Source of the DNA: Vampirovibrionaceae bacterium NZW_1234 | GTDB taxonomy: Bacteria; Cyanobacteriota; Vampirovibrionia; Vampirovibrionales; JAGQHJ01 | DNA length: 64,000 nucleotides | Reading direction: 5' to 3' | NCBI GenBank assembly: GCA_041697335.1 | Contig: JBGUGD010000014.1 | Coordinates: forward strand, 1 to 64,000 | Shown here: positions 20,873 to 60,720 of the stretch, piece by piece | How the letters are laid out: the number at the start of each line of letters is the position of its first letter | Position numbering within the stretch: the stretch's first letter is position 1 | The notes under the pieces: generated by a model | Told to the model about the DNA's origin: nothing | The model's input: only the letters and a program-made list of their open reading frames with translations | Databases searched by the model: none | Position numbers and translations under genes: made by a program

Positions 20873-21562
20873 ATGCCATGGCCCATTGGCCGTGATGTTC
20901 GCAACACACCATTCTTGAAATTTTCTTCACAACAGCCCTCCTCATCCTCTTCGGAATTCACCAGAGCTATGGCTTTACCACGTGGCACTTATTACACTCC
21001 CAAAACCACACGCATGCGGCACGAAGAAGTTATTATGATCGGCATGGATCAAACGGCTATCACAAATGCCACCAGCGAAGTTCCAATTATCGGGACCAGA
21101 AGCTTGAACCCTTGCTACGCCATTATTCTATTCAATCGCACTACCCGAACTGCAATCATGCGTCATCAACCCAGCCCCCCACCAGAAACATTCAATACCT
21201 TGATGACATTGGTCCGCAAGGACCCCCGAGATAGAGTTGAAGTTCATCTTATTGGAGGCACCCCCAGCGATGATCCCGACCTGAATGAGCGAGCAAAAGA
21301 CAACACGGATCGACTCAACACTCTATATAACTTGGTTACGGCCATTGACAACACAAATAATACCGTTCTTAAGACCTGTGATTGCTATGACAAGCCGAAA
21401 CCGATTGCTGTCGCCATCGATAGCAGAAATGGGCGCCTTATTCGAGGCTCAGATTTTTTCATTACACCTGAAGAAGGTGATAAAACCTTTGACTGTTTTC
21501 AAGATTACGGCTACATTAGCGATACTGTCGAAGTCTTTGACGGTACCATTCCCGAATATTAA
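20873..21562 (+). CDS. putative Cys-His deamidase (CheD/NTAN1/CNF1-like fold)
   Basis: IIGTRSLNPCYAIILFN...AIMRH...VEVHLIGG; alternative ATGs at 20840 and 20858. Confidence 0.55.
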   Translation: MPWPIGRDVRNTPFLKFSSQQPSSSSSEFTRAMALPRGTYYTPKTTRMRHEEVIMIGMDQTAITNATSEVPIIGTRSLNPCYAIILFNRTTRTAIMRHQPSPPPETFNTLMTLVRKDPRDRVEVHLIGGTPSDDPDLNERAKDNTDRLNTLYNLVTAIDNTNNTVLKTCDCYDKPKPIAVAIDSRNGRLIRGSDFFITPEEGDKTFDCFQDYGYISDTVEVFDGTIPEY

Positions 21563-21734
21563 CTCTTTTCAAGCCTTCGAACTGATATTTCCTTATTAGG
21601 GTCGCTATTACAAGGTAACATTCCTTAACCAATTCGTTGGTTCATGGCAATTTCAAAGATTTCCATTGTTTATATATATTATATACAAGCTCCGCTTTGG
21701 CGATGCCTCAGGTAGGTCTTTGAAGGGTTCAATT

Positions 21735-23480
21735 GTGATTAGCACCAAAGATCTTCTCCTATTTTCCGCAATTCAAAATTTCTCTCGTTCGTCACGAGGG
21801 GGAATCTATCGTGGGGTAGATGACTCAGGCTCATCTTCAAACAATCCATTCACAACCCTCATCTTCTTGTCGTTTTTAAAGAAATCCAAATCCACCCCAG
21901 TCAGTACAAGCCCCTTTGGCTCGCTCAATCTCCCCTTGAGCAGTGGTGGAAACACGCTCATCATTGGCGGTAATGGCGGGTTGAATTTAGGAGGATACGG
22001 CTACTGGAATGGCTACGGCCTACCAAGCCAACCCCCAGGCGTGTGCTCCCAACCCGTGTATCCATCCCCTTGCAACACGGTTTGTCTCCCACCGCAACCT
22101 ACACCGTTGCCAAGCCCATCACCCACGCCACTGCCACTCCCCACACCAACTCCAGTGCCAGCTCCAGTACCAGTCCCAACACCCGCTCCCACACCAACTC
22201 CAACGCCTGCCACACCCGTTGACCCTTCATCGATACTGGATTTTGCCCCCGTGCTGGTTGGCCGTCAGGCCAATAACAATTTGAATTACACCAATATCGA
22301 TTCCACCTTTAACTCGAGTGAGAGCACCCTCAGTAAGACCTACGCTCTCAGCAATTCGCCCTGGGGCGCCAACTACCGTTCTCCTTATATGTATCAGGCC
22401 TATCAAGAGCAAGTCGATTTCTATGCAATGATGGGCCGTAATTTCGACCAAATTGATACCAATCGCGACGGACTGGCATCGGCTTCAGAAATCATGGCAC
22501 TCGCTGCGAGATCTGGAAATACAACCAGTATTGAGGCTTCGGACTTTACCCCCGGAACAGCGCCTGCGGATATGACGCCTGTTCCCGTAGGTATTCATGC
22601 CCAAACCGGCGCCATTTTATTTAATGCTACAGCTAATCTTCAAGGAGGTTCATTAGCACCGACACCGAGCCTCAATAAAGCGTACTTTGAAAATCGAAGC
22701 CAAGACATCTTACTCTGGCAAAACTATAATAAATTTCTCTATAGTATCGGAGTCACGTTTGATCACTGGGATACCAATCGAGACGGCAGGTTAAGCAAAG
22801 CCGAGCTGGATGCTGTTGCAGCCCGCTCAGGTGATCCAACCCGCATTGAAAAATCAGACTTGTTGGGTGCTTCAACGACTCAAACGAACAATACCGGATT
22901 CATCCAGTTCAACCCTGCTAACGTTGGCACCGATCAATTTGGCCAAGTGCAAATTAGCGGTATTTCTCTCGGTGCCAACCAACTGACCACAACGCTGATT
23001 GGCCAGTATAATGCAACCCCCTGGCAAGAGAGTCAAAATATCACCAACATGTACAGCACTCTCTTCCAGAATTTTAGCCAAGTGGATACCAATAACGACG
23101 GTGTTCTCAGCAGAGCAGAACTCTCAGCCTTTACCGCCAAGTCTGGGGACACAACCAAGTTGGAGGTCACAGATTTTACCCCCGGTACTGTAACGCAGAC
23201 ATTTACCGGTGTTACCATAAGTTCGAGCAATGATGGGCTTATTTCAATTAATGGCGCCCCTATGTTCGGAACGGACTTCCAGATAACCCGCACAAATCTT
23301 CAACAGCGCCTAAGCGAGTCTGAAAACGGGACCAACTTCAGAAAAATCATGTATAACCTGGGACAAGTAACAAACCGAGTGGATACAAACGGTGATGGCA
23401 CGCTCAGCCTTGCTGAACTGAACGCCTTTAAAGCCAGAGCCGGAGATATCACCAAACTGGATTTTGCAGACTTTGCCTGA
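21735..23480 (+). CDS. Pro/Thr-rich protein with four EF-hand modules
   Basis: DTNRDGLAS..E, DTNRDGRLS..E, DTNNDGVLS..E, DTNGDGTLS..E; (PT/PV)n linker. GTG 21735 is the likely start (TTG 21666 possible). Confidence 0.82.
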   Translation: MISTKDLLLFSAIQNFSRSSRGGIYRGVDDSGSSSNNPFTTLIFLSFLKKSKSTPVSTSPFGSLNLPLSSGGNTLIIGGNGGLNLGGYGYWNGYGLPSQPPGVCSQPVYPSPCNTVCLPPQPTPLPSPSPTPLPLPTPTPVPAPVPVPTPAPTPTPTPATPVDPSSILDFAPVLVGRQANNNLNYTNIDSTFNSSESTLSKTYALSNSPWGANYRSPYMYQAYQEQVDFYAMMGRNFDQIDTNRDGLASASEIMALAARSGNTTSIEASDFTPGTAPADMTPVPVGIHAQTGAILFNATANLQGGSLAPTPSLNKAYFENRSQDILLWQNYNKFLYSIGVTFDHWDTNRDGRLSKAELDAVAARSGDPTRIEKSDLLGASTTQTNNTGFIQFNPANVGTDQFGQVQISGISLGANQLTTTLIGQYNATPWQESQNITNMYSTLFQNFSQVDTNNDGVLSRAELSAFTAKSGDTTKLEVTDFTPGTVTQTFTGVTISSSNDGLISINGAPMFGTDFQITRTNLQQRLSESENGTNFRKIMYNLGQVTNRVDTNGDGTLSLAELNAFKARAGDITKLDFADFA

Positions 23481-23652
23481 TTCAGACCGGCATTGCGGTT
23501 ATAAATAATTACCCAATGTAACGCGTCTAAAACTATATATTTGACAGCAGCTATACTTTTTCATACAATCAACCGGTTGGGAATTTTATGTGATAGGACG
23601 TTTATGCCGTTCCCCATGAGCCGGCATAACACTAGGTATGGGAGATAATACA

Positions 23653-24450
23653 ATGAAGCTAACCCCGATTCGCTTTGGGGCCATTGCGGTGACCAATGCA
23701 ACGGTTTCGAGACAGCAAACTTCACTGGTTACTTTGGGACGTAATACCCAGGCAAATGCAAAGGCCAGCAAAGAGACGAAAATTCAAGTAACTTTGAAAG
23801 CATCTGAGGACAAGGATCTGGTGTTTAAAACCATCCCTGGCCTACAACCAGGTGCATTAAGAGAGGAACCCATCACGTTAACCTTTTTTCAAAAAGACGG
23901 TTCACTTTCTGTCCAATCCACCTTCAAGGAAGACAAAAAAGCTGTTGTAGGTCAGGAAATTGTCGGCTATAAAGATGTTTTCAAAGGTTATGAAACAGTA
24001 CAAGCGGGCTTACCCGCTTGCTGGGAAGGCCCTGTTCCTGAACCCTACGAGCAGCCGGTCTATGAGCGAGAGCCAATCTATGGGCCAAAGATGGGAATTC
24101 AACGACAAGACAGCCACAAGACAATTGCTCTGGATACTCCTGAAGCATTCCAAGATTTACTGACGCTAACCGAGCAGATTCCGCTGGATAAATCCATCAA
24201 GGGTCCCATTAAAAAGTTACTTTCTCATACATTCAAGGCTTTTGCCGATCAGAAAGCCAAAGCACTGGAAGCCGAACTGGCTGCACTGGGAGAAAGTAAA
24301 GCGGGTGCGCTGGAAAAATTGAAGCAGGATAAGGCCAGGGAATTAGCAGAACAAACTCGTCAGCTCACAGAAAGCCATGACACAAAGACAAAAAGCCTGA
24401 GCAGCACACAGGAACTCTTAGCTGCACTCAAAAAGAAACTGCTTCGTTGA
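23653..24450 (+). CDS. hypothetical protein with C-terminal coiled coil
   Basis: GGAG RBS plus ATG; begins MKLTPIRFGA; Glu/Lys/Leu-rich tail. Confidence 0.75.
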   Translation: MKLTPIRFGAIAVTNATVSRQQTSLVTLGRNTQANAKASKETKIQVTLKASEDKDLVFKTIPGLQPGALREEPITLTFFQKDGSLSVQSTFKEDKKAVVGQEIVGYKDVFKGYETVQAGLPACWEGPVPEPYEQPVYEREPIYGPKMGIQRQDSHKTIALDTPEAFQDLLTLTEQIPLDKSIKGPIKKLLSHTFKAFADQKAKALEAELAALGESKAGALEKLKQDKARELAEQTRQLTESHDTKTKSLSSTQELLAALKKKLLR

Positions 24451-24570
24451 TTCTGATTGCATCTTTTTAAATTAAAACCAGTATCGGGTAGACATGACAG
24501 AATCCCTCCTGATTCGACGTCATGTCTGCCTCAGATTCTGAAAAAGCGATACCGACCTAGAACAGAACTC

Positions 24571-25371
24571 TTAGGCTGTCTGAAGATTCCGACCCGGTTT
24601 CAACCGTCTGACTGCGGCTGATAGGGATGCATAATCTTGCATCTTGTCATGGGCCAATAGCGACAAGAGCGAGTAGATACGCTTGTTGGTTGCATCCTTG
24701 CCACCCGGCAATGCCAGATCTTCGTCAATAAAAGTAATGTATCTGGGGTCTTCCAAGCGATCAGTCGTACCGGTCAGCGTCACCGCATGAATATCGCTTG
24801 GTGCCTTGGGATGAAGCATGAATTGGGCTGAACGCAAATAGTTGTATAGGTGCTCGGGAGACCTCTCCAGATCTTTTTGAATAAACTCAAAATATGTCTG
24901 CCCATGGCGAATTTCATCATCGGCAATGAGGGTAAATATGTCCTTCCCAACCGGCTCGTCCAGCCAATTGGCCATACTGCGATACCAATTCGCCAAACGG
25001 TGTTCGCTCAGAAAATGGATCATCAAAATGTTTTCTTTGCTGCTCGGTGGAATACTCATGCGAAGAGCCTGGAATTCGGCCTCCGGAATTTCGATACCCA
25101 GATGCGAAAGGTATTTCTTCAGCACCAGGCAATGCTTCATTTCCTCGTAATACCACACAGAAACATAGCAGGAAAAATCGATGTCATCGTAGAAATCCCG
25201 AATAAATGATTCTGCGGCAAATAACGACCCAATTTCCGTCTTACAGATATGGTGAATCAAATTGGTTTGCTCCTGGCTAATTCGTGTCGGATCAATTTGA
25301 TCCCACTGAATATCTGTACCAAGATTCCATCGGACCTTTTCTAATTTATCAAAGAATTTCTCATACAGCAT
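24571..25371 (-). CDS. ferritin-like di-iron protein (acyl-ACP desaturase-like)
   Basis: RW....DI.W, TE, W..EEMKH, SE....WY, I..DEIRH. ATG 25371 overlaps the end of the helicase gene. Confidence 0.82.
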   Translation of the reverse strand: MLYEKFFDKLEKVRWNLGTDIQWDQIDPTRISQEQTNLIHHICKTEIGSLFAAESFIRDFYDDIDFSCYVSVWYYEEMKHCLVLKKYLSHLGIEIPEAEFQALRMSIPPSSKENILMIHFLSEHRLANWYRSMANWLDEPVGKDIFTLIADDEIRHGQTYFEFIQKDLERSPEHLYNYLRSAQFMLHPKAPSDIHAVTLTGTTDRLEDPRYITFIDEDLALPGGKDATNKRIYSLLSLLAHDKMQDYASLSAAVRRLKPGRNLQTA

Positions 25372-29103: not shown

Positions 29104-30465
29104 TCAGTCTAAGACTTTCTTATTTTTGGGAGAGACCAAACCTAAGAGTTGGTCATAAATACGTTGACTTAAGCCCTCTACTGCCGATTCAGGTGTTCCG
29201 GACTTAATTGTGTCTAAAACATTAATTGGCATCCCGATTGAAATACAAGCACGCCGAGGTATCTCTGTCATGAGCTTTTTTGCTGCTTGCGGATCATGAA
29301 GATTAACCAAAAGAAAGAGGGTTTCGGCAATTCGCTCCGGGGATGGCATCAAGCGAACATAGTTTGGATCATACTTGGCAATTGACAAGCAATCCTTAAC
29401 TGCGGAAAGAAAGTTCATCAATTTCTTATGCTCAACAACGGAAGTTTCTGAACGATGCCACTTGGCATATATGGAACGCCTAACCATCGCACATCGTTCC
29501 AGTGGATCGTCTTTTCGGACGGCATCAACAGCAATGTTTAATGATTTCTCCAAGGGCTGTAGGGTTGCTTCAATACAAGCTCTTCTTAACTCCTGCAACG
29601 TAGCCGACTCTGGGAGCCGAATATTACTGCGAGCAAGTATTGCCTTTAAACTGGCACGAGCAACCCCCTCCAATTGCGTTAATTGCGAGACAGGTTCACC
29701 TGAGGCAGTAAAAACCCTTAATCTCTGGCACCATTGGTTTAGATGCCTATTAAGGACCTGAAAAGCATATGAAGGCGAATTAAACTTGAAGTTAATCCCC
29801 ACAGGAAGAATAACAACACGATGATCGGGCTTCTCCTTAATGAGTCTTTTCGCTGCTTTAAGACTCAATTGAGCAACCCCTGAACGAATCGGCAATACGG
29901 ACTCGGCCTGAAAACTTTGCATCCCTTCCGGAAAAATAAGTACCGGCGCTTCGCCTTTTTCAATAGCCTGAATAATCGCCTTAATCGCCTTTAAGTCATT
30001 TGCATCCCGGTGAATAGGCACAAATCCCAACCAACTTAGACACTGCTGAATCAGCGGCCTAAAAAACTGCCCCCAGGCATTAAACATGGCCAAATTTCCA
30101 ACAACCTGAATGCGGCTGCTTGCCTGATTTAATACTGAAAACAGAGAAGCCACATCGCCAAAGCCCGGATGCGTGGGAGCAATAATTAAATGCGTTTTTG
30201 GGTCATTAACAAGGCCCTTCAGCGTATCCAAGTTTGAATGAGACACATCGGTAATGTTATGAACCAAGCGTCGAAAAATATTGGTGTTCAACCCATGTTG
30301 CACTGCCCAACCCATCAATATGCTTGGATAACTCTGGTAATCCTGAGCTGGAGATTCTGTAATTGGATCAGGCAAAAAATTACCATTCCCAAAGCGTAGA
30401 CTTGGCTTTAAAACAATTGCATTCTGGCCCGAATGACCGGAGTTTCTATAAAACACGGAGATCAT
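29104..30465 (-). CDS. PlsC-family (lyso)phospholipid acyltransferase with N-terminal extension
   Basis: THPGFGD (HxxxxD), F.PI.R, IFPEG, ILPVGI. Confidence 0.85.
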   Translation of the reverse strand: MISVFYRNSGHSGQNAIVLKPSLRFGNGNFLPDPITESPAQDYQSYPSILMGWAVQHGLNTNIFRRLVHNITDVSHSNLDTLKGLVNDPKTHLIIAPTHPGFGDVASLFSVLNQASSRIQVVGNLAMFNAWGQFFRPLIQQCLSWLGFVPIHRDANDLKAIKAIIQAIEKGEAPVLIFPEGMQSFQAESVLPIRSGVAQLSLKAAKRLIKEKPDHRVVILPVGINFKFNSPSYAFQVLNRHLNQWCQRLRVFTASGEPVSQLTQLEGVARASLKAILARSNIRLPESATLQELRRACIEATLQPLEKSLNIAVDAVRKDDPLERCAMVRRSIYAKWHRSETSVVEHKKLMNFLSAVKDCLSIAKYDPNYVRLMPSPERIAETLFLLVNLHDPQAAKKLMTEIPRRACISIGMPINVLDTIKSGTPESAVEGLSQRIYDQLLGLVSPKNKKVLD

Positions 30466-31409: not shown

Positions 31410-31572
31410 GGTATATCAGGGGTACTCCCGCCCACATGAAAACAACTCACAAAATTTTTGTGATACGCCATGCATTTTTCTTCCTGAATTGTCGAAGGGC
31501 TTGGCCCGAGAGGAGCGGGACATGTTATGATGATGCTCAGAGGCAGTCGGGTTGAGTCAAACGGGAGTCACC

Positions 31573-32853: not shown

Positions 32854-33057
32854 TAATACTGGCATTACCGATACACTATTGAAACCAGCTCCAAATTGTA
32901 ACAATTCTGAAACAAACTAGCATCAACTTGGATTGATGACTTTTAGTGCGGGAAATTCAGCTCGACTGAGTTGGATGATTTATTGAGAGCTAGCCTGATC
33001 GTACACAGAGCTAAGAACAGTTGCAGCTTAACAAATTGCAGAAAGTGAAGCGGGATT

Positions 33058-34272
33058 ATGAAGGTACATTCGGTTTCGGGAGTGACACCCTTATTTGGAG
33101 CCCATTCCTTACAAGCCTCCAAGTCTGCGGAGGAGATAAACGGTAAGGCCTCCATCCATCATCAAAACCCTACTTCTTCTGGGAAGGTAGTCTCTATTCG
33201 TTTTGGCAGTAGCGGTTATCCGGCAAATACGTTGAAGCTTATGACCTACAACGTGGATGGCGCAGGCTCGCCAGAAGCTTGCAAATGGTTTGGCTACGGC
33301 AAGTCCAATAACTTTAAATTGGAAAAACTGGCCGAAATCATCAAGGACAAGTCTCCCCATGACCTACCCGATGTGATTGCCTTGCAAGAAGTCATTATCA
33401 AAAAAGCACTGAAAAACTATGGGGGCTCTGAGCCCTTGATTCCACGGAAATATGACCAGACAGGTTTTGACGCATGGTTAACTCAGGAGGATGGCCCGGA
33501 ATGGATTGAAAACTGGGTTAAAAAGCATCTGGGCGATGCTTATGGGGTTATCTGCTCGGAAGGAACCAATGATCCCTCCGGAAAAGCATTGGCCATCTTG
33601 TACAAAAAGGATATGATCCCCGTGGCTAAAAAATCACATTATGGCCTCAAGAACCAATTCAGCGACAATATTTTCACCCGAGACTTGCAGGAAGTGCATT
33701 TTCAGATCCGCAGTCAGCGGGACCCCAGTAAGGTTGAGAATCTGGTTGTCCTAAACTCCCATTTCTATGCGAACTTAAAACATAATCGTTATGGAGAACA
33801 ACGCCAAAAGCGGGAATATTTGCAAACGGCAGATATTATCCAAGAGATCCTCAAGGCCGATCCGAATACCCACATTGCGGCGATGGGTGATTTTAACCTG
33901 CCAACCGATCACCGACAGCGCAAAGATCTCTTGAACATCCTGACCGATGACGGCAATGCCATGGTTGACAGTTTTATGAAACACCACATGGCTGTTCCAA
34001 CCTGCCGGTCCAAAATGGAGGGCTCAACCTTCCGCTCGGATTGTATTCTGCTGACACCCACGTTGGATGCCAACGTACAAGATTTAGGAGTCATCGGCAA
34101 CTTTGACACTGAGGACAAATACCAAAAATCGTCTCCACACTTGCCGGTCTTTGTCGCCACAAACACGTCTATACCCCGGAACGAGTGGCTCCAATTCAAG
34201 CGGGTCACCCCTGCCGCTGCAACAACGAACAAGGCCACTCCCATTGGGAAAAAGCTTGTCGTTAATGGATAA
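33058..34272 (+). CDS. endonuclease/exonuclease/phosphatase family protein with N-terminal extension
   Basis: MTYNV, DVIALQEV, NSH, MGDFN, SDCIL, SSPHLPV. Confidence 0.85.
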   Translation: MKVHSVSGVTPLFGAHSLQASKSAEEINGKASIHHQNPTSSGKVVSIRFGSSGYPANTLKLMTYNVDGAGSPEACKWFGYGKSNNFKLEKLAEIIKDKSPHDLPDVIALQEVIIKKALKNYGGSEPLIPRKYDQTGFDAWLTQEDGPEWIENWVKKHLGDAYGVICSEGTNDPSGKALAILYKKDMIPVAKKSHYGLKNQFSDNIFTRDLQEVHFQIRSQRDPSKVENLVVLNSHFYANLKHNRYGEQRQKREYLQTADIIQEILKADPNTHIAAMGDFNLPTDHRQRKDLLNILTDDGNAMVDSFMKHHMAVPTCRSKMEGSTFRSDCILLTPTLDANVQDLGVIGNFDTEDKYQKSSPHLPVFVATNTSIPRNEWLQFKRVTPAAATTNKATPIGKKLVVNG

Positions 34273-34459: not shown

Positions 34460-35242
34460 ATGAATTTAGTGAGTTTGCGTCCTGCAATTTCGCCGCAGGC
34501 CAAGAAGCCCATCCTTAACTCCAGCCAGTCTCGGTTTTCAGGTCAAAAGCCCTCTGTCCTCACCGTGCAAGGTGTTGGAACCGTTTATAAAGTGCCTGAT
34601 ACTGTAAGTGTGACAATGCAAATCCACGATCAGGCCAAGACTCGACGCGAAGTGGCTTCATCCCTGGATGACCGCTCTCGGCGAATGATTGAAATGATTA
34701 AAGATATTAGTCCCAACTTACGGATTAAAACCGATACCCACATCGGACAGCATCATGAATACAACCACCAAACCCATAAAAACGAAAAAGTCGGTTACGC
34801 AGGTCGTTATATTGTTACCGTGACAGAGCAAGGTGACAATCTGGACGAATTAAAAAAACATGCCTCCCGAATCTCCGAGATTGCCGATGAAACCGAAGCC
34901 AATTTTAATGGGCCACAATTTGCATACAGCAAAACCCAGCAGGCTGTTTTAGAAGCTATTCCTGAAGCGGTTAAAAACCTTAAAGAAACTGCATTGACGC
35001 TCGCCAAAGCCCTCAATGTCAAACTTGCTAAAAAACCGGTGTCTGTCTCAACAGGTGGAGAGACACCCTCGGTTGCTCATGCCCAGCTTGAAACAGTTGC
35101 TCTTGCAGGCGCTGCCCGTCAGGCGGATGCCCCCGTCGGTGTGAGTCCAGAAACCATGCAAAGTGGCCTGATCCCCATCCAATCTCCAACCGTCCAGGCC
35201 GTGTTTCGGATTTTGCCCAAACAAGCTGACTCCTTAAAGTAG
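34460..35242 (+). CDS. SIMPL (DUF541) domain protein
   Basis: LTVQG.G.V...PD...V, GY......V, GPQF..S, A...A...A..LA..L.V.L. Confidence 0.75.
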   Translation: MNLVSLRPAISPQAKKPILNSSQSRFSGQKPSVLTVQGVGTVYKVPDTVSVTMQIHDQAKTRREVASSLDDRSRRMIEMIKDISPNLRIKTDTHIGQHHEYNHQTHKNEKVGYAGRYIVTVTEQGDNLDELKKHASRISEIADETEANFNGPQFAYSKTQQAVLEAIPEAVKNLKETALTLAKALNVKLAKKPVSVSTGGETPSVAHAQLETVALAGAARQADAPVGVSPETMQSGLIPIQSPTVQAVFRILPKQADSLK

Positions 35243-36355: not shown

Positions 36356-37159
36356 GTGTTTATCTCCATGCCTGTCAGGCCATACAAACCCATCAACGGT
36401 TTTCCAAAACCGGTTTCTTATGAAGACGTGAAGGGGAAACCTTACCAAACTACTGAGGTCAATATTCCTCAAAATTCGCAGATTCCCCCCACATTGTGCC
36501 AAGTCTATTTTGGGGTGTCAGAACCCGATAAGGCCCTTGGCAATTTAAAACAACGTATTCAAACTCTCGTTCACACCTATCGCACCCAAGTCGAAGCTAT
36601 CCCGACATTAATGCGTGACAACCGCATCAATCACCGCGTTCATCTACGCATCATCGGCACCCTGCTTGGGTATTTACCACCCACCGCCTCACCCAAGGAA
36701 TCCTACCATCAGTACCAGCTAATCTTTAATGCCGTCCAGCGGGCTGTCGCACCGGGTAAAAAAGACTATCGCATGGTGTGCTATACAAAATCCAAGCCCG
36801 TTTCCGACGACACCTATTGGATACAACAGTACGGCTATCATGTGCTCGTGTTTGCACCCAACGGTGCTGTCGAGTCGTACCGACGGATAACCCCGCCTGA
36901 TGTTGAAATTGATGGCGTCACACCTACAAACTTTCAAAAACGCTTGCAGCTTTTTAGCAAAACTGAAGAAGATGTCAAAGCGGTTTTAAAGCAACTGAAT
37001 ACTGAGAACCCAATGCCACACAGCCCACCCGAACCGCTTTCAGATCCAAACCACTACTCCCGCACCCTGTTTAAACTTAGTGCCAACGGCCTGGATGCTT
37101 GGTCTCAGCCAGCCACCCTCACCTTGCCGTCCCTTTCTCTGGATGAGCCTGTGGGTTAA
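36356..37159 (+). CDS. hypothetical protein
   Basis: 267-aa ORF filling the gap; Pro-rich leader with VYFG. Confidence 0.65.
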   Translation: MFISMPVRPYKPINGFPKPVSYEDVKGKPYQTTEVNIPQNSQIPPTLCQVYFGVSEPDKALGNLKQRIQTLVHTYRTQVEAIPTLMRDNRINHRVHLRIIGTLLGYLPPTASPKESYHQYQLIFNAVQRAVAPGKKDYRMVCYTKSKPVSDDTYWIQQYGYHVLVFAPNGAVESYRRITPPDVEIDGVTPTNFQKRLQLFSKTEEDVKAVLKQLNTENPMPHSPPEPLSDPNHYSRTLFKLSANGLDAWSQPATLTLPSLSLDEPVG

Positions 37160-41880: not shown

Positions 41881-42063
41881 CTCTTCGCTTCTCTTTACTC
41901 TCCGTTTTCCAGCCGAGTAACATCGGCATGCAGATCCCAAAAATAACGACCTACATGAATAAAAACCAGAGATATCAAAAAATTGCCTTATTATATCATT
42001 CAGATTTACAAATTTTCAAAACCGCCCCTTCATTGGCAGACATTCGCACTCATCTCGGGATGA

Positions 42064-46605: not shown

Positions 46606-47574
46606 ATGCCTTGGGATGTCACGGCATTACATTCTGCCAATAATAGTTGTTTTTATAGCCCTAAAACTCAAAATTTCACTCATAGCGTTCCCAGGATCGC
46701 TTCTAAACACGATGGGATTTATTTTGGAAAGGCAATAACCCTGATCCCCATCACACGCCTGGTCATTGATGGCAAGCCAACTCCCCAATCAGCGGAACAA
46801 AGCTTGCTTCTGGCTTTAAAACAGTGGCCCAAAGGAACACGTTCTACCTTTTTGATGACTCCAGGCGGTTTCCTAACCGTCCAGGCAGCCACAAATGTCT
46901 TTCGAAAAACCGGATGGGAAAGCCAACCCGTAGACTTGGCACGGGCCAAAAACCTGGCAGAGGAGGCTATTAAGACAACCCTGACACAGGAATTCTACCG
47001 CGCAGCTCAGTCCAAGATTCGTTACCTGACCCTGGGCGTGGATGTTGTGACAGATACGACCTTCAAGACACCTCATGCGGAACTGGTCGCCGTTGTTGAC
47101 ATTCAACAGCGAAAAATCGTCCACTGGACAGGGAAGTCTTATCCCCACAGTAAGCAGGAACACACGCTGGTCCACGAAACCAATCTCAACAGTCATCTCT
47201 TTACCACAGATACCCAAGACAAAGTGTTGATTTTGGGCTGCCACGACCTCAATCTGTTTAGCCCTCGCGCATTTCATAACCAAAGTCCCGGCAGCATGCG
47301 GCGTCGCAGGACCGAAGCTATGGAAACCACTGTGGCACCTCACCCGGATATCCGGTTCATTCTCCAACACCCACACGGCACAGATACCCCCAATATCTGG
47401 CGTGGTGCCTGGAGTGCCATCCAGCGTAAATTTCCCCATCTTACCGCCTGGGCCAGCGCCGTTGGCTATTTCAACTTCAATGGCGGCAAGCCAAGGCAGC
47501 CTCTGGCACGTGTTCTCACCCAAACCCGAGACAGCGCCCAGCACGTTCAGGACATCGTGGTGAAGCTCCCTTGA
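46606..47574 (+). CDS. hypothetical protein, carbon-nitrogen hydrolase-like fold
   Basis: FLMTPGGF, WTGKSYP, LILGCHDL; leader with IYFG. Confidence 0.55.
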   Translation: MPWDVTALHSANNSCFYSPKTQNFTHSVPRIASKHDGIYFGKAITLIPITRLVIDGKPTPQSAEQSLLLALKQWPKGTRSTFLMTPGGFLTVQAATNVFRKTGWESQPVDLARAKNLAEEAIKTTLTQEFYRAAQSKIRYLTLGVDVVTDTTFKTPHAELVAVVDIQQRKIVHWTGKSYPHSKQEHTLVHETNLNSHLFTTDTQDKVLILGCHDLNLFSPRAFHNQSPGSMRRRRTEAMETTVAPHPDIRFILQHPHGTDTPNIWRGAWSAIQRKFPHLTAWASAVGYFNFNGGKPRQPLARVLTQTRDSAQHVQDIVVKLP

Positions 47575-51333: not shown

Positions 51334-52005
51334 TTATCGCACCCAGGGTACAATGACCCCACGTTTGGCCATCTCACAGGCAAACAAAATGCCATTGGCA
51401 CTGTAAATCCAGCGATTCCGAGGAATTTGCTCAGAAAGCGGCCGGAAGTATTGCTGTAAAGACGGATCCTGCAACCAAGCCGGGTTAAACCCTTCCGGTA
51501 AACCATAGGGATTATTGGCCGGAAGTCCACCGCCCATTCCAAAGCCAGGCGTTCCAGTAATCCCAGGCGTTACCACCCCAGGAACACCAATGGCAGGCAT
51601 GCCTGTAATTCCCACGGTGGGTGCCGCCCCAAAGCCAACTCCTGGTGTCACGCCATAAGAGTATCCAGGTATAACACCTGTCGCTCCATAAGGAGCATAG
51701 CCACCTGCGACACCGGGCATCACAGTCGCCCCGTAAGGTGCATAACCTGAAACGACGCCAGGCATCGTTGGAACGCTACCCCCAGCAGACATGGCTCCAA
51801 GAGGCAACGTAAAGGTTATGCTTGTGGGAGCACCGGCTCCAGCCGAAATCATTGGGAAAGTTGTCCCTGCGGGAACACCACCTGTGGATCCACTGAATAG
51901 AATAGGTGCACCGACACCCGGACTGCCACCAATTGCTCCCCCAGTGGGATTAGACCCAACGCTGCAGTTAAAATTAAACGTGCAGCTCATTTGCATATAA
52001 CTCAT
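51334..52005 (-). CDS. Gly/Pro-rich hypothetical protein
   Basis: GGAGG RBS; GYAPYGAT twice, MPGV repeats; short globular C-terminus. Confidence 0.7.
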   Translation of the reverse strand: MSYMQMSCTFNFNCSVGSNPTGGAIGGSPGVGAPILFSGSTGGVPAGTTFPMISAGAGAPTSITFTLPLGAMSAGGSVPTMPGVVSGYAPYGATVMPGVAGGYAPYGATGVIPGYSYGVTPGVGFGAAPTVGITGMPAIGVPGVVTPGITGTPGFGMGGGLPANNPYGLPEGFNPAWLQDPSLQQYFRPLSEQIPRNRWIYSANGILFACEMAKRGVIVPWVR

Positions 52006-52972: not shown

Positions 52973-54259
52973 CTACACCGGCATTAAGGCATCACTTTCC
53001 TCAAAGGAAAGCACGCGATGCACTTCGGCAATCTCGATACTCTTGAGCAGAATGTTATCCAACTCCGCGATACGAGTGCGAAAGACACTCCATTCATCCT
53101 GTGGCGCCATTAACACCGCTTGCAACCAGGCAGGAGACTGATCCAGTTTATGCAGCCACCCGGCATTAATAATCTCTCTGGGTGATGCTGGCGTTTCCTG
53201 AATTTGATGCAAGATACCATAGACATCAATACCTTCCTGCTCCAGCTTCTGAAGATCCTCACGCAACTGAGCAGGGCTGCCTAGCATCGGCACAGCGCTA
53301 ATGAGCATCCCGCGTTCAAGGCGTTCTTCCAGCAATTGACTCTTAAGCAAGGCTTTTTCTGTATACGCCAAGCGTTCCGGAATCACTTTTTCAATGGCTT
53401 TCAGGATGCGATCGGCCACATCTTCTTTACCAAACAGTTGCACAACACTATGGGCTTCTTCGGATACCGGCAAAGACTGCCGCAGACGCTCCAAGGACTG
53501 ATGAAGAATGACCAGATCCTTATTCACCAGACCGAAGCGGTTTAAAGCTTGAAATAAGACCGGCTCCACAGCCTGTAAAACACTAAACTGCTTCAATTCC
53601 AAGCTCTTCAAGACAAAGTAGGCATAATAACCGGGCCCTAACAAACGCAGATTGAGGACCGGGGTAATATACTTTGCTTCTGACTGAGGCACCCCAATTT
53701 CCTCAAACAACGAGGCCATTTGAATCGACTGAACGGAAAAATACTCGGTAAAACGATCAGCCAGTCCAAACCACGGCAACGGGCTTTGGGCGTCCAAGAT
53801 GGGGAGGCTTGACACGATTAAGGACTCAAACGTAGGCAAGTCAGCCTGCTGAGCCTGAGACTCCACGGGAATCACAACCACACCAGGCGCATCCGGCACA
53901 AGCTTGGTTAGCCCAAGGCTGTTGAGATAGAGTTCGGTCTCGGGCAAGACTTCACGCTTCTTCAATTGATACAACGCTTTTCTTACCGGCGCCAAGGAAC
54001 TGCGGATTTCAGGAAAAATACTGTTAATACAGTCGTGGATAAACGCCTCGTCCAGCGTGGCTTCCTGGAATGCCAGCAAAAACTGCTCCCGCTGAGCAAA
54101 AACACGCTCTTTAACCCCTTCCATATGGCGCACCAATTGGGTGACATAGGGCAAAATGTTGGCCTCTGCCTGATTTTCCAATTCGTTGAGTTGAAGCTCT
54201 AAGCGGCCAATTTCCTCTAACAACTCATATAGCAGGCGTTTTAGCAATATTTTATTCAT
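52973..54259 (-). CDS. helical hypothetical protein co-transcribed with dcd
   Basis: 428 aa, N-terminal coiled coil, 20-nt gap to dcd containing AAGGAG. Confidence 0.8.
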   Translation of the reverse strand: MNKILLKRLLYELLEEIGRLELQLNELENQAEANILPYVTQLVRHMEGVKERVFAQREQFLLAFQEATLDEAFIHDCINSIFPEIRSSLAPVRKALYQLKKREVLPETELYLNSLGLTKLVPDAPGVVVIPVESQAQQADLPTFESLIVSSLPILDAQSPLPWFGLADRFTEYFSVQSIQMASLFEEIGVPQSEAKYITPVLNLRLLGPGYYAYFVLKSLELKQFSVLQAVEPVLFQALNRFGLVNKDLVILHQSLERLRQSLPVSEEAHSVVQLFGKEDVADRILKAIEKVIPERLAYTEKALLKSQLLEERLERGMLISAVPMLGSPAQLREDLQKLEQEGIDVYGILHQIQETPASPREIINAGWLHKLDQSPAWLQAVLMAPQDEWSVFRTRIAELDNILLKSIEIAEVHRVLSFEESDALMPV

Positions 54260-55927: not shown

Positions 55928-57037
55928 TTAAACCAATTCCCGAGACTTTCCAGTCTGCTCTAAGCGCTGTACCTTGGTTTCTACTAAGGACGCCAGTCGC
56001 TTGGCATCATGTACAGGAACCGTTTGTACCTCCGGAGCTTGATTTAGCCGCAACCAAGTTCCATTAGGCAAGCCTACGGTCTGATATAAGTTTGCTCTTC
56101 GCCCCGAAGCATCTAACCAGCTACGCGGGTGTAACGATAAACGAGCCCCATTAGGCAGGCTCAAGGCATCCTGATCCACCCTCAGGCCCAATATCGGAGC
56201 AACAAATCGGGCAAAACCACGAATGGCCAAACCTTGCAACGGATGTTCCATGGGAACGAAACCCGCCTGTTGAGGATTCTCTTGAGACAGTACGCGAAGC
56301 ACATCGCCGGCTTGATGAACCCATCGTGGTGTAGCCCGTTCCCAGCCGGCTGTTGCATAAGCCATATCGAGTTGATGGAAGAACTGGGGCTTAATCATTT
56401 GGCCGGTAAGATGATGCAAATCAACCTGAGTCAGGCGGGGAGCAGACTCTTTCAACGGTGCTGAATTTTTTGATGTTAACGAACGACCAAAGACAGGCCA
56501 ACTGGATGTATACAGACGGGTCTTACCGGAAAACGGGTTTGAGACAGGGGTTGCAAATCGCTTAGCTTTCTTGGCAGACGGTTGTTTCTCTAACGCATCC
56601 GGTGACACAACACGCTGTGGCGCCATCGCCTCGTTTAAGGCCGATTCAAACGGGTTGGATGTCTGTGACACCGTTCCCTTGGAAACCCTGGGCTTAGAAA
56701 CGAACCCTTGTTTTTGCGCTTCCTTGGGCTTGTCATCCGAAGCCCCAGAAACCCCATGAGGGTCTCGGGCCTGATCCATCTGTGGCTTTAAAAGCAGCAC
56801 ATCACGTTGACTGGGGGGCAATACTTTGTCCCAAATCGGGGCGTGGTCATGATTGACGAACGTGAACATGAGCGGTTGCGGAGCCTTCTGAGCAAAAAGG
56901 GACATCACTTTTGCCCGGACCGAGTCGCCAGAAAAGAAGACATCTTTATGTTGTAAAAATTCCAAGCTCCGGCTTGGTTGCGACGCCTTCGGTTGGGTAA
57001 AAAAGGGAGCCGCATGTACACGAGACACAGGTCTCAT
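55928..57037 (-). CDS. hypothetical protein with low-complexity N-terminal half
   Basis: AGGAG RBS; leader with VFFSG. Confidence 0.7.
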   Translation of the reverse strand: MRPVSRVHAAPFFTQPKASQPSRSLEFLQHKDVFFSGDSVRAKVMSLFAQKAPQPLMFTFVNHDHAPIWDKVLPPSQRDVLLLKPQMDQARDPHGVSGASDDKPKEAQKQGFVSKPRVSKGTVSQTSNPFESALNEAMAPQRVVSPDALEKQPSAKKAKRFATPVSNPFSGKTRLYTSSWPVFGRSLTSKNSAPLKESAPRLTQVDLHHLTGQMIKPQFFHQLDMAYATAGWERATPRWVHQAGDVLRVLSQENPQQAGFVPMEHPLQGLAIRGFARFVAPILGLRVDQDALSLPNGARLSLHPRSWLDASGRRANLYQTVGLPNGTWLRLNQAPEVQTVPVHDAKRLASLVETKVQRLEQTGKSRELV

Positions 57038-57154
57038 GGTAATCTCCTAACTCTCCGCTGAAGACACCCGTTGGGTATCGTTCCTACAATATACCGTAAA
57101 TGATGATGATTGTTTAGCAAAAGTTCATGAGAACCATGAGGGATTAACAATTCT

Positions 57155-57697
57155 TTACAAGGATTTCTCAATCACATACATATCCAACCGAACGACACCC
57201 AGCAGCATAGAGCCTTTATCCTCTTTGATTGTGGGGTCTTTTGCGGGCAATGAGCCCAGATTCTTCAGCTCTACCATTTGTACCACCACATTGGGAAAGT
57301 GCTGAATAACCTGGGACAGAAATTTCTGGATGGAAAAATAGGGTCCACTCAACTGCACCGTAATAGGAATTCGCTTCACCATAGACGGAAACCGGGGATC
57401 AGAAACCGCCTTGGAAGGATCGCCTGCGATTTCAGTGAGATAAATCCCTGCTTCCACACTCTGGTTAAACAACGGAGATACAATACGAGACTGCCAGGCC
57501 TCTGTATGTTTTAAGCGAAGCTCCGGCAACGTCGCCAGTGGCTTGGGGATGTAATTAACCGGGTCATTCAACTCCACTTGATAACGTCCATGGGCTTCAA
57601 TGGCCGGCTTGAGCACCAGCACCGAAATCACCGAGGAAGCAGCCAGCATGGCCAACAACAGAAACCATTGACGAAGCGTCAATCCGGATGTGCTCAT
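57155..57697 (-). CDS. PilO/GspM-like pilus assembly protein
   Basis: N-terminal TM helix; PI.V.L.G.Y..I..FL..V motif. Confidence 0.7.
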   Translation of the reverse strand: MSTSGLTLRQWFLLLAMLAASSVISVLVLKPAIEAHGRYQVELNDPVNYIPKPLATLPELRLKHTEAWQSRIVSPLFNQSVEAGIYLTEIAGDPSKAVSDPRFPSMVKRIPITVQLSGPYFSIQKFLSQVIQHFPNVVVQMVELKNLGSLPAKDPTIKEDKGSMLLGVVRLDMYVIEKSL

Positions 57698-59148
57698 GGT
57701 TTTTTAGTCTCCTGCTTAGCTTGAGCCTGACCCGAGCCTGTTGCATCTTGAAGAATTTTCCCCGTAAAGCTGAATTGGCTTAAAATCTTCTCCCCATCCG
57801 AAGGCATCACAAATCGTTTTTGGGCTTTGATTTGAAACGGCTTGAGCTCAGAGGCGGAAACAAGTGCGTCGATAAAGGCATTTGCCTTTTGGGCTTGCGC
57901 CGCCTTTCCGGAAATGTTCACCCGCTCAGGCATCTCAACCCGCAAGTAATCAATCTGGACTTGAGCCGCATTTTTATTAATCACGTCCATCAGTTTTTGA
58001 TAAAACCCATTCTGCTGGTGTAAAGCTGAAATGGTAGATGACAGTGCTTCATCACGTTGGCGGAGCTGAGCATCCAGCTGTGTATTTTGAAAAATATAAT
58101 ACCCGCTCGTCCCTAAAACCCCGAGCATCACAAAAAACGAGATTATCAATAAAAAGCGCAATACCGTTGCTTTGGCACGCACCGCTGTTCGATGAGAAAC
58201 ATGATGCTTGGCTGAAGCCCCACGTCTGGATGCTAAAAAATCCCAGGCCAAAGGGAAAGGCACTTCCTGCTTTAATGCAGCCCCTAGAGCCGCTGCCGAT
58301 GGCTGATTGGGGTAACTTCCATACAAGGGCCCTAAAACCGCCTGACGAACAGGAGCGCCCAACTTCAGCTGAAGCAGATCCATCGGCTGCTTGACACCCT
58401 GCTCGGACCAGGCAAACCAGAGATTCGGCTGACTGATGCCCATTCCTAACATGGGTTCCATGAGTCGCTCCTGCATACTCGCCATATCCGCGGGTATGGT
58501 AAACGTGCCAATGTAGATCAGGTTGGTCCCCTGCCAAATGGTCTGCCACGTTTGAGAACCGACCACACCAAAGCAACCCCACACCGCATCGGAACCTAGG
58601 CGCCGCAGCAATGCGTCCAACACGCCTGAGGCCGCCATGCCCCGCAAGACCGCCAAGGGCAAAATATCCACTCCCTGCAAGGGATAGCCTGCCTCTTCAA
58701 AGACTTGAAAAAAGTGTTTAAGCTCATTATCACCATAAAACGCATACGCAATGGCCGCATGGTCCCCATGTTGCCAAAGCATAGAGTATTGCACAATGGG
58801 CGTATCTCCGGCCAAAACCCCTTCTTCAGAAATTAATTGGGGTAAGCCCTCTCTCAAGGCATGCACATCGCCCACCGAAAAGGCACGGGTGGCTAAAAAA
58901 GGTGTGTAAAATGTTAAATACACGGGATAGGCAACATCGGGCTGTCCTAAAGCAGCAAAAAGCCCACGAATCGCTGCCACCAACGTGGGTGTATCCAGAA
59001 TCCGTTTGCCGTCGTGCGCCATCGTCGCTGGGGGCAATGGCTGGTGTTCATAGGCTTGGAGAGAAAAATCCTCAGCCGAAACTTTGACCCCACTAATATG
59101 GGTGGGCGAGATGGAAATACCGATTAAACTGGATGACGACTTGCTCAC
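57694..59148 (-). CDS. degenerate PilM-like domain fused to TM plus PilN-like domain
   Basis: IGISIS.., GVDILPLA..R, AALGAAL, TM helix, coiled coil, V.ISGKA; 4-nt overlap with the PilO-like gene. Confidence 0.65.
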   Translation of the reverse strand: MSKSSSSLIGISISPTHISGVKVSAEDFSLQAYEHQPLPPATMAHDGKRILDTPTLVAAIRGLFAALGQPDVAYPVYLTFYTPFLATRAFSVGDVHALREGLPQLISEEGVLAGDTPIVQYSMLWQHGDHAAIAYAFYGDNELKHFFQVFEEAGYPLQGVDILPLAVLRGMAASGVLDALLRRLGSDAVWGCFGVVGSQTWQTIWQGTNLIYIGTFTIPADMASMQERLMEPMLGMGISQPNLWFAWSEQGVKQPMDLLQLKLGAPVRQAVLGPLYGSYPNQPSAAALGAALKQEVPFPLAWDFLASRRGASAKHHVSHRTAVRAKATVLRFLLIISFFVMLGVLGTSGYYIFQNTQLDAQLRQRDEALSSTISALHQQNGFYQKLMDVINKNAAQVQIDYLRVEMPERVNISGKAAQAQKANAFIDALVSASELKPFQIKAQKRFVMPSDGEKILSQFSFTGKILQDATGSGQAQAKQETKKP

Positions 59149-59162
59149 AAACGACGCAGCAC

Positions 59163-59813
59163 CTATCGACGACGTCCTGCGGCCATAAACCGCAATACCA
59201 TCAGAAACAGATTGATAATGCTGAGATAAAGCCCCAGTGTTGCAGCAACCACGCTGTTATTATCATAGCGGTTCACCATGTCACTGGTCTGCAGCAAAAT
59301 ATAGCCTGAAAAAATGACAATTCCGACACCGGAATAAACCAAATCAGAGATGGGCAACGTAAAAAACAAGCCAAGAACCCCAACCAACACCAGGGCCAAT
59401 AAGCCAATGAATAAAAAGCCTCTCAAGAAGGAGAAGTCCTTTTTCGTCACATTCACAAAGAGACTCAGCCCACCAAAGGTAACCGCGGTGGTTCCTGCCG
59501 CTACAGGTATCAGATCACCCATTCCCATCCGCACATAGGCATTTAATACCGGCCCCAAGATAACGCCGGAAAAGATTGTGAACAAGAACAACAGCATGAT
59601 GTTCAAGGGATAGGTTCTTTGGCACAGGGTCGCTGCAAAATAAGTCACAAAGTACACGACGATCATAGGCAAATACAAACTCGGTGGCATGGAGAGACCC
59701 AAGTAGCTGCCAGCCGAGCAAAACAACAGGGACACACCCAAAAGCGTATAAACCCGGCTCACAAACTCCGATCGATCTTGAACAGCGGTTTTATCCAGAC
59801 GGACCAGGCTCAT
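59163..59813 (-). CDS. Bax inhibitor-1/YccA family membrane protein
   Basis: F..RVY, KDFSFL..FLF, IFSGYIL..T, A.LGLYL..INLF..L. Confidence 0.93.
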   Translation of the reverse strand: MSLVRLDKTAVQDRSEFVSRVYTLLGVSLLFCSAGSYLGLSMPPSLYLPMIVVYFVTYFAATLCQRTYPLNIMLLFLFTIFSGVILGPVLNAYVRMGMGDLIPVAAGTTAVTFGGLSLFVNVTKKDFSFLRGFLFIGLLALVLVGVLGLFFTLPISDLVYSGVGIVIFSGYILLQTSDMVNRYDNNSVVAATLGLYLSIINLFLMVLRFMAAGRRR

Positions 59814-60111
59814 TTTCGAGACCTCGCTTTCTCCAGTAGCCACAATCATCTATTTTTAGAATATCAGGTTTTTCCAAGAGGGCAATGTACAGCCCGCACC
59901 TAAGCCTCTGATAGACAACAGCGTTCCCCCCGACCACGGTTGCTTCAACACTAAGACCCGCAAACCGCCCTTCCAATGCGGCTTTTTACATTCACATCAT
60001 GACCCTGGAACACAGGTCCATGGAAACAAAACTTAATATAGTAGCAACGGATTTTCTTGAGGATGCTTTATACCGACACAAAGACACGAAGAGCACGGGG
60101 GAAAGTTACGG

Positions 60112-60720
60112 ATGCTACCAGGATTACAAGGCAATAACGTCGGTGGAAATCACGCCACGTTTAAAACAGGGGCCTCAAGACATGGCCAAGCCTGTTTATG
60201 CGGCGGATGCTCCAATGGCAGCCTGCAACCCCGGTTCTCCAGCAACACTCCTACAAGCAAGCCCATTGACCTACCCAGAACAAATGCAACCCTCGGGTAT
60301 GCACTCAGTGGGGGACAAAATCAGTTCCAGGCTCTGAATGACACCTTCCCCGGAGGCCAAAGAGCGACGGAGGAATTCCATCATAAAGTCCATCATGGTC
60401 TTGATGGCTACGGTGTTACCCCGGGCACGGCTGCTCTTGGCGAAACCCCAGAGAACTTGGCCCATATCGGATCTCCCGGACTGTTTGAAAGTTCGGTGCG
60501 ATTAACGGAACTCCATAAACAGGCTCGCCAGGATTACGCCAATGCCCTTGCTGCCAGCGTGTCGTCCGGCCAAATGACTCCTGATCGAGCCAAATCAGAA
60601 CTGGATCTCTTTGACAGTGAATGGGATCACACGTTCACCTTAGGCCAATATGCCCATAAAAAAGGAATTGAAGAAATTGCAGGAGCCCGATCTGATATCC
60701 ATACCTTGGCTCAAGCTTAA
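60112..60720 (+). CDS. hypothetical protein
   Basis: 202 aa; leader with HGQACLCGGC and PRFS. Confidence 0.65.
   Translation: MLPGLQGNNVGGNHATFKTGASRHGQACLCGGCSNGSLQPRFSSNTPTSKPIDLPRTNATLGYALSGGQNQFQALNDTFPGGQRATEEFHHKVHHGLDGYGVTPGTAALGETPENLAHIGSPGLFESSVRLTELHKQARQDYANALAASVSSGQMTPDRAKSELDLFDSEWDHTFTLGQYAHKKGIEEIAGARSDIHTLAQA

Follow-up and report, generated by a model that had tools for sequence, protein, structure and literature searches.

An N-terminal Arg-Phe-Gly leader on numerous proteins of a Vampirovibrionaceae bacterium and its possible link to a second flagellar-type export system

The first 64,000 nucleotides of contig JBGUGD010000014.1 of Vampirovibrionaceae bacterium NZW_1234 (assembly GCA_041697335.1), which constitute the window analyzed here (C23:1-64000 of the genome coded G000; 3.70 Mb, 41 contigs, 94.75% complete), contain dispersed genes whose products share a peculiar N-terminus. 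This leader is polar, acid-poor, and non-hydrophobic, and is closed by the motif [V/P/L/I]-R-F-[G/S/A]-[G/S/A]. An earlier note on the window had drawn attention to it, and all eleven motifs quoted there lie in frame at the genes named, within residues 1-50. The pattern recurs genome-wide; the observation is real, far beyond chance, and larger than that note could see. The consensus x-F-[GS] given in the note captured the Phe-Gly/Ser core but was too wide, as the real consensus is narrower and the Arg preceding the Phe carries most of the signal in G000. The leader profile used for scoring was learned by expectation maximization (EM), with a cut-off score of at least 5. Many leader genes also share an upstream sequence box, for which separate scores are given.

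Five of the nine genes listed in the earlier note pass the cut-off, all of them on the forward strand. An orphan gene for 265 amino acids with a short leader (23653-24450) carries IRFGA at 23668-23682 (score 10.7) and has no Pfam match. The EEP nuclease/phosphatase gene (33058-34272), preceded by a high-scoring box (32918-32947, +; score 23.4), encodes a 50-residue leader with two motifs, PLFGA at 33088-33102 (7.8) and IRFGS at 33196-33210 (12.1), ahead of the PF03372 domain that starts at residue 62. In the SIMPL/DUF541 protein (34460-35242; SRFSG at 34529-34543, score 9.5; PF04402 from residue 34) the leader occupies the position of a Sec signal. Two further orphans are encoded at 36356-37159, where a long leader with VYFGV at 36503-36517 scores just over the threshold (5.7) and no Pfam family matches, and at 60112-60720, with PRFSS at 60229-60243 (13.5) and a box at 60042-60071 (+; 20.5). 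Three of the listed genes are borderline. The gene at 20873-21562 (+; LKFSS at 20915-20929, score 2.7) is a probable member with a box at 20777-20806 (+; 16.9) and a weak N-terminal Asn amidohydrolase-like domain after the motif (PF14736, E=0.001, under the cut-off). The acyltransferase gene at 29104-30465 (-) is also a probable member, in which LRFGN (30385-30399, score 1.9), canonical in its core and not in its flanks, precedes PF01553. Thus, as stated in the note, the motif lies ahead of the recognizable domain in the EEP, SIMPL, and acyltransferase proteins. The gene at 46606-47574 (+; IYFGK at 46717-46731, score 1.0, box 6.3) is a doubtful member, and its description as nitrilase-like is a lead only: it has no Pfam match, the nearest named Atlas cluster is CN_hydrolase (31% of members, score 0.87), and the protein is about 35 amino acids longer than the Atlas look-alike clusters of 287-292 amino acids. 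The ninth gene, at 55928-57037 (-), is not supported, with VFFSG scoring -8.6 and no box. An additional candidate missed by the note is a Gly/Pro-rich gene at 51334-52005 (-; ILFSG at 51889-51903, score 7.7). Two genes that had been named as possible members, a Pro/Gly-rich gene starting at 4433 (2064-4500, -) and a collagen-repeat gene starting at 41880 (40366-41988, -; PF01391), do have the upstream box (4471-4500, score 14.3, and 41959-41988, score 17.8), but their motifs MSFGN and MYFGS are weak (1.6 and 3.4). The housekeeping genes rpe, dcd, folC, and udk are without leader, with scores from -5.5 to -13.4.

The SIMPL family illustrates the exchange of a leader for a Sec signal, which the note had stated. 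In an exhaustive homologue search, the 18 closest relatives all carry a leader as judged by eye, and 17 of the top 19 score at least 2. Among the next 130, more distant relatives, 106 start with a hydrophobic Sec-like segment.

Gene calling in G000 with a hexamer and ribosome-binding site (RBS) script gave 2,856 genes, and the 2,776 products with at least 100 amino acids were scored. Within residues 2-60 of 2,454 proteins, RFG is the most over-represented tripeptide (146 occurrences vs 29 expected), and the EM consensus reads S-[VPLI]-R-F-[GSA]-[GSA] with flanks rich in Ser, Pro, Ala, and Thr. The cut-off is reached by 320 of the 2,776 proteins, compared to 25±6 (maximum 36) when the N-termini were shuffled 20 times with their composition preserved, and by 200 in held-out scoring with separate training and test contigs, compared to 7-17 per half when shuffled. 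Hence, the predicted enrichment over a shuffled background was found. Long proteins (n=1,768) showed 204 N-terminal matches vs 4 and 11 in internal control windows. Based on the raw and held-out counts, the true number of leaders is about 200-300, or 7-11% of the proteome; known false positives among the 320 include FliW, YdjM, a uracil-DNA glycosylase (UDG), and a few Sec proteins. Leader genes occur on 35 of 38 contigs, have a normal GC content, and lie within operons less frequently than other genes (8% vs 26%). The Phe of the motif is located between about 2 and 60 residues from the start (median residue approximately 22, 95% within about 50) and within about 10 residues in 84 of the 320 proteins. 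Upstream of the motif, Asp and Glu together account for 3.2% of residues vs 9.0% in other N-termini, and the Ser/Pro/Arg-rich leader has a net charge of +2. According to a hydropathy proxy, the N-terminus is hydrophobic in 1.9% of leader proteins vs 17.6% of the others, so that the h-region of Sec and Tat signals is lacking. Proteins with at least four transmembrane segments are likewise rare (0.3% vs 6.4%). Altogether, the proposal of a lineage-wide, non-Sec, protein-level N-terminal tag that is absent from core genes was supported.

The leader is an appended protein module. The codons for R, F, and G of the motif vary about as much as in the genome at large, which indicates selection at the protein level and rules out a DNA repeat or mobile element as the source of the motif. 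True translation starts downstream of the motif were also ruled out, because an RBS-preceded in-frame ATG follows the motif in 3.4% of leader genes vs 4.2% of controls, and the RBS and ATG use of leader genes is as good as that of other genes. Leaderless paralogues exist for 64 of the 320 leader proteins (identity 23-56%, median 33%), and in 59 of these 64 pairs the alignment begins after the Phe. In an orphan family with seven members, the spacer varies in length and sequence and the motif is kept, with the Phe present in six of the seven. Of the conserved orthologues identified as best hits in DNA sampled from other families (361, pooled over six samples), only 5 carry the leader. An amphipathic Trp/Phe-rich helix directly behind the motif occurs in 12 of the 320 leader proteins vs 22 of 2,077 controls.

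Leader genes share the box [TA][AG]GCAA-N10-TTGAG-N5-TT[TA][AT]T, mostly 30-60 nucleotides ahead of the start, which suggests by its position that it is a promoter. It precedes 108 of 273 leader genes (approximately 40%) vs 74 of 1,683 others, and cross-validation retained the difference (43 of 136 and 53 of 137 leader genes vs 53 and 107 of the 1,683, or 32-39% vs 3-6%). Out of sample, among 110 genes of three further genomes from the family, six had the box; five of these six bear a leader, and two are near-duplicates. With the spacing derived from G000, it was also found in the gut genome G144 (one of the relatives, coded G001, G030, G078, and G144) at 5 of 13 leader genes vs 19 of 386 others, and was unmatched at the leader genes of family f3 (0 of 6; f1-f11 are coded families of the class Vampirovibrionia) and of named gut loci (0 of 3). 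In 46 genomes of the order, taken to be the Vampirovibrionales, forward matches to a fixed-spacing box outnumbered reversed-control matches in most cases (13 vs 6 in G000); this form of the box is too strict for mapping the regulon. The box is unlike the sigma-28 consensus, sigma-28-like patterns are not enriched upstream of leader genes, and no second promoter motif emerged among 153 box-negative leader genes. The box is also found ahead of low-complexity proteins rich in Pro, Tyr, Gln, and Gly that lack the RFG motif and may be further cargo or structural parts. This class is represented in the window by the aforementioned boxes at 4471-4500 (-) and 41959-41988 (-) and by those at 21645-21674 (+) and 62556-62585 (+), in G144 by one at L171:18310, and includes an EF-hand repeat protein (21666) besides the collagen-repeat protein. 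Two more box matches in the window lack a leader gene: at 60886-60915 (+) no clear open reading frame (ORF) follows, and a non-coding RNA or a remnant is possible, and at 31436-31465 (-) the gene behind belongs to the sulfotransferase family.

What the leader is attached to was surveyed by a Pfam scan of 115 of the 320 leader proteins, namely those in regions picked for leader density. A match was obtained for 37 of the 115 vs 46 of 60 neighboring non-leader proteins. About two-thirds of the putative cargo are orphans, the rest being extra copies of catabolic enzymes, proteases, and nucleotide or glycogen enzymes. Profiles identified enzymes of the tricarboxylic acid (TCA) cycle type (citrate synthase, aconitase, isocitrate dehydrogenase, and malate dehydrogenase), as well as aldehyde dehydrogenase, acyl-CoA dehydrogenase, enoyl-CoA hydratase, thiolase, PRPP synthetase, guanylate and uridine kinases, NAMPT, and MalQ. 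They also identified aminopeptidase N, Lon-, FtsH-, and ClpB-like ATPases, a calpain-like protease, phosphoesterases, TPR proteins, and HEAT proteins. GDH, NadD, ClpC, ClpP, and glycogen enzymes were recognized by eye only. A pair first taken for candidate nucleotide translocases proved to resemble glutamate synthase. The expectation of enzymes that act on host lipids, nucleic acids, and proteins was too narrow, as duplicates of genes for the TCA cycle, beta-oxidation, nucleotide salvage, and proteases are among the cargo as well. A leaderless twin exists for most of the enzymes named, but not for aconitase. Its gene (C20:394-3018, L220, TIGR01340 type) encodes a 111-residue leader plus amphipathic-helix module that orthologues lack, and those examined start at the position of an internal ATG (residue 112). 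Therefore, two forms of aconitase might be produced, and the sequence would be compatible with a dual-start gene.

The inventory of secretion systems suggested in the earlier note was carried out and revealed a machine that the note had not named. Besides one complete flagellum, G000 encodes a second flagellar-type set, referred to here as system 2, so that two FHIPEP, two FliP, and two FlhB genes are present. System 2 consists of gate and ATPase parts (FlhA', FlhB', FliP'Q'R', and FliI'H'J'), FliF', FliM/N-like and FliG-like proteins, FliE', FlgB'C'F'G', a FliK-like protein, and a lytic transglycosylase, and a gene for a FliA-like sigma factor adjoins flhB'. It is distributed over the loci C32:10110-20950, C8:66046-69870, C29:178730-180600, and C30:50562-52826; in G001 it is mostly contiguous (locus L150) with no secretin within. 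No second FlgD, FlgE, FlgH, or FlgI was found in G000, where the single copies belong to the flagellar set, and system 2 lacks a hook, flagellin, cap, and L/P ring of its own and has no secretin linked to it. It thus does not show the hook, hook-filament junction, flagellin, and L/P rings of a motility flagellum. The two secretins of G000 sit in the type IV pilus/type II secretion system (T4P/T2SS) and Tad loci, and no VirB4 was detected in this genome.

A survey of 200 further genomes from this class showed genes of the FlhA family in all members of f1 (3/3), f2 (17/17), f3 (20/20), f4 (2/2), f7 (57/57), f8 (8/8), f9 (11/11), and f11 (1/1), in 22 of 23 genomes of f6, in 1 of 56 of f5 (a contig-edge fragment), and in neither genome of f10 (0/2). 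FlhB' has the same range (91 of 120 genomes, 0 of 28 in f5), and the FliA-like sigma factor, usually adjoining flhB', occurs in 140 of the 200 genomes and in none of the 56 from f5, which probably represents the Obscuribacterales. Flagellin and FlgI were found in none of the f5, f7, f8, f9, and f10 genomes, and FlhA' is kept in all 76 genomes of f7-f9. In all 41 sampled genomes of the order, the separate set coexists with a full flagellum. FlhA' of G000 shares 62-67% identity with proteins from named Gastranaerophilales/Melainabacteria genomes, and f7 clusters with named Gastranaerophilales in the FlhA' tree. In both phylogenetic trees, FlhA' forms a single clade (support of 100 in the Shimodaira-Hasegawa-like approximate likelihood ratio test, SH-aLRT) apart from SctV and from the flagellar FlhA of the class itself. 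This clade and its conservation in lineages without flagellin indicate that system 2 is a maintained system and not a product of decay; this finding stands independently of the leader's function. Approximately unbiased (AU) tests rejected neither a grouping of FlhA' with SctV (p=0.70) nor one with the class's own flagellar FlhA (p=0.84), which weakens the tree as proof of a flagellar rather than SctV origin. An initial view that f7 keeps both gates was wrong, because the second FHIPEP match is a stand-alone FlhA C-terminal domain. This domain lies in a soluble f7 protein behind an N-terminal part of no known kind (G144 C1:1501950-1502969, L219 and L122; G030 L218). The protein, which was not found in G000, could be a cytoplasmic cargo adaptor.

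Like the non-flagellar systems for type III secretion (NF-T3SS) or injectisomes defined by Abby and Rocha (2012; PMC3459982), system 2 has homologues of all eight core genes sctJNQRSTUV (FliF', FliI', FliM/N-like, FliP', FliQ', FliR', FlhB', and FlhA'). Unlike these, it has no secretin of its own and keeps FlgB, FlgC, and FliE, all three encoded in the system-2 operon, and would therefore be filed as a flagellum under the rules of PMC3459982. This filing may explain why it was missed. Flagellar-type gates and rods that stand without a filament and transfer proteins, or are proposed to do so, are also represented by the Buchnera basal bodies (PMC8109811), the flagellar exporter of Lysobacter enzymogenes OH11 (PMC7688988), the CORE nanotube platform of B. 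subtilis (PMC6456723), and the type III system without secretin in the Myxococcales (PMC3459982). In contrast to those flagellar cases, which employ the single set of the cell, system 2 is a deep paralogue separate from the flagellar set, possesses a sigma factor of its own, and comes with a recognizable tag. The 'partial flagellum' of gut Gastranaerophilales (flhA, flhB, fliI, flgG, and others) has been read as loss (Di Rienzi et al., 2013, PMC3787301; Soo et al., 2014, PMC4040986), and for the retained flhB, fliI, and flgG a secretion function was 'postulated' (bioRxiv 10.64898/2026.04.24.720558). The tree and the genomes with two sets show instead a distinct conserved system. The accessible text of these three sources does not mention leader, promoter box, or substrates, and that of PMC12248157 does not mention the class. 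The literature searched, whose scope excluded subscription journals and the supplements of Soo et al. and Di Rienzi et al., contains no description of the leader, the box, or the second system; the flagellar gene tables in these supplements could show duplicate genes.

On the sequence evidence, we lean slightly toward the reading that the leader is the substrate tag of the non-swimming system 2. The link between tag and machine is circumstantial, and an export role of the leader as such is what we infer with good support. An alternative promoter would switch on the cargo regulon, the unfolded, acid-poor leader would enter the type III gate, the Phe-centered motif would serve for docking without a chaperone, much as a flagellar gate-recognition motif does, and the cargo would leave the cytoplasm through the rod and most plausibly act in a prey or host cell (the predatory lifestyle of G000 being presumed from kinship only). 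Early flagellar substrates carry an N-terminal hydrophobic signal and a gate-recognition motif, and spacing matters for FlgD (Bryant et al., 2022; PMC8983047). The leader resembles them as an unchaperoned, short hydrophobic motif within the first approximately 50 residues, for which reading by the FlhAB-FliPQR gate is proposed. It differs in being a fixed consensus on hundreds of non-structural proteins, in its position anywhere from about 2 to 60 residues from the start, and in its absence from the rod subunits of system 2 itself. Type III signals are Ser/Thr/Pro-rich, acid-poor N-termini, and like the non-cleaved N-termini of injectisome effectors the leaders are fused to acquired enzymes; to our knowledge, injectisome signals have no comparable consensus. 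The scattered monocistronic cargo genes with a common promoter box are reminiscent of hrp-box-type regulons. In G144, which is not flagellated and has system 2 as its only export gate, a leader variant (I/V/P-S/N-F-T/G/K) was found on 13 of 371 proteins vs 1.3% internally (p=0.004, an optimistic value because the pattern was widened after inspection of the N-termini), and two leader genes lie within its system-2 locus. The system-2 transglycosylase of G000 bears the tag as well (score 6.3), and f5, which is without the machine, shows no enrichment (6/289, p=0.16).

Several observations weigh against this reading, in addition to the optimistic p value for G144. The motif was absent or nearly so from the sampled proteins of f2 (0/132), f6 (0/147), f8 (1/106), and f9 (0/100) despite the presence of FlhA', where three or four matches each would be expected at a rate of 3%, and it was not significantly enriched in f3 (6/245) or in 13 named gut loci (3/171). 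Neither direction of this co-occurrence is a formal test, because each genome was sampled over 60-500 kb and the genomes are related to one another. The protein profile of G000 fails on AT-rich lineages, the form found in gut relatives, I/V-S/N-F, has no Arg, and de novo tripeptide counts gave no dominant motif in G144, G078, and G001. The structural genes of system 2 lack the box, as its rod proteins lack the motif. No outer-membrane part was recognized for system 2, and unlike in injectisomes no class I (CesT-type) chaperone matched, in a search that was uninformative because its controls were blank too. The export inventory of G000, a genome 94.75% complete, covered flagellar-type, VirB4, T4P/T2SS, and Tad components. 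A Sec-, Tat-, or lipobox-like or single membrane segment follows right after the motif in 41 of the 320 leader proteins vs 106 of 1,755 controls, and such second segments are unexplained by plain injection into a eukaryotic cytosol. Bipartite N-termini of this kind, in which a lipobox-, Tat-, or Sec-like signal comes after the RFG leader, are encoded in G000 at C14:137174, C34:197552, C10:63584, and C8:43123 and also occur in protein P0025. Together with the organelle-like enzyme set they are least explained by the favored reading, to which the leader on the only aconitase copy found in G000 is also adverse.

The bipartite leaders and organelle-like enzymes motivate a different reading, namely delivery into a bacterial-type compartment. 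A rod-only channel with its own sigma factor, evolved independently of injectisomes, would ship a second proteome, consisting of TCA, beta-oxidation, salvage, and quality-control enzymes and of Sec, Tat, and lipoprotein bearers, into a prey bacterium, an organelle, or a DNA-free feeding or daughter compartment belonging to the exporting cell; the RFG leader would be the counterpart of a transit peptide and the bipartite forms would serve onward sorting. We regard this as unlikely, though worth stating. That the cargo looks like a sample from an entire bacterial proteome, with TCA, beta-oxidation, and salvage enzymes and Clp/Lon/FtsH-like proteases, would also fit an intracellular tag for maturation, degradation, or localization on a developmental regulon, whose products stay inside, for example as a stage-specific enzyme set, while system 2 does something else. 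A shared promoter fits any regulon, the sole aconitase and the 41 proteins with Sec/Tat/lipobox-like segments would be accommodated, and several families have the machine without the motif. Such a tag, which we hold to be a minor possibility, would leave unexplained why the leader swaps for the Sec signal in the normally periplasmic SIMPL family, avoids polytopic membrane proteins and core genes, sits mostly on proteins with a leaderless twin or without known function, has the composition of type III signals, and marks two genes in the system-2 locus.

If the leader is an export signal, another machine might read it: an unrecognized translocon, a type IV secretion system (T4SS) missing from the incomplete genome, a pilus-type system, a type VI secretion system, or a contractile system. 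The T4P/T2SS and Tad loci of G000 and the imperfect co-occurrence of leader and system 2 speak for this idea, as does the attack through plasmid-linked T4SSs proposed for V. chlorellavorus (PMC4451040). T4SS effector signals, however, are usually C-terminal; VirB4 is missing, T2SS and T4P require entry via Sec or Tat, without which the leader comes, and gut genomes of 1.9 Mb with system 2 have retained the leader, all of which makes another machine distinctly improbable. Reading by the motility flagellum's own gate, or by both gates, in flagellated species is less probable again. The flagellum of G000 is complete, flagellar gates can export non-flagellar proteins (PMC7688988), and both FliD proteins begin with x-F-G-G (scores 8.1 and 5.2; FlgJ 3.2), but G144 has the leader variant without flagellin, FlgI, or a flagellar gate, and no motif was found in f2 and f6, which are flagellated families. 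The matches of the FliD genes (C5:100662-102452 and C5:141547-143340) to the profile may point to an ancestral source of the motif or be a coincidence. A leader that mainly mimics a eukaryotic organelle presequence, sending delivered enzymes to host mitochondria or plastids, is very improbable. Its acid-poor, Ser/Pro/Arg-rich composition with a net charge of +2 is that of organelle transit peptides, R-F-S/A is similar to sites of mitochondrial cleavage, enzymes typical of matrix and stroma are among the cargo, and some leaders are bipartite, with a Tat- or Sec-like part behind. Organelle import, though, needs transit peptides of tens of residues, whereas a quarter of the leaders (84 of 320) have at most 10; furthermore, the motif of gut relatives is I/V-S/N-F and lacks the Arg, forms with a lipobox depend on processing by bacteria, and an export step would still be required. 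Finally, the starts come from an in-house gene caller and some matches are false (FliW, YdjM, a UDG, and Sec proteins), but an artifact of mis-called starts or low-complexity N-termini has a practically negligible probability. It is refuted statistically by the shuffle, held-out, internal, and reading-frame controls, and it is at odds with the independent DNA box, the conservation of the leader in independent homologues, and the normal RBS and ATG use.

Three other features of the window are noted for completeness. Two overlapping ORFs at 69-810 resemble by eye what we take to be a split IS5-type transposase. At 57155-59148 (-), a gene pair resembles by eye type IV pilus alignment proteins (PilM/PilO-like), the larger one having no Pfam match. 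A gene for 428 amino acids at 52973-54259 (-) has a strong coding signal and belongs to no Pfam family.

If the leader is indeed the tag of system 2, a class-wide type III export system would have been overlooked in the sister group of the photosynthetic cyanobacteria, and a sequence rule would list its export substrates straight from genomes. A type III signal with a real consensus would make gate recognition directly testable, and system 2 would be a living second case of a flagellar exporter in non-motility use. It would also offer an alternative to the plasmid T4SS model of feeding by Vampirovibrio-type predators. The 'broken flagellum' of the human-gut Gastranaerophilales would then have to be seen as a secretion machine that is maintained, and this common gut lineage would have an as yet unrecognized interaction partner.

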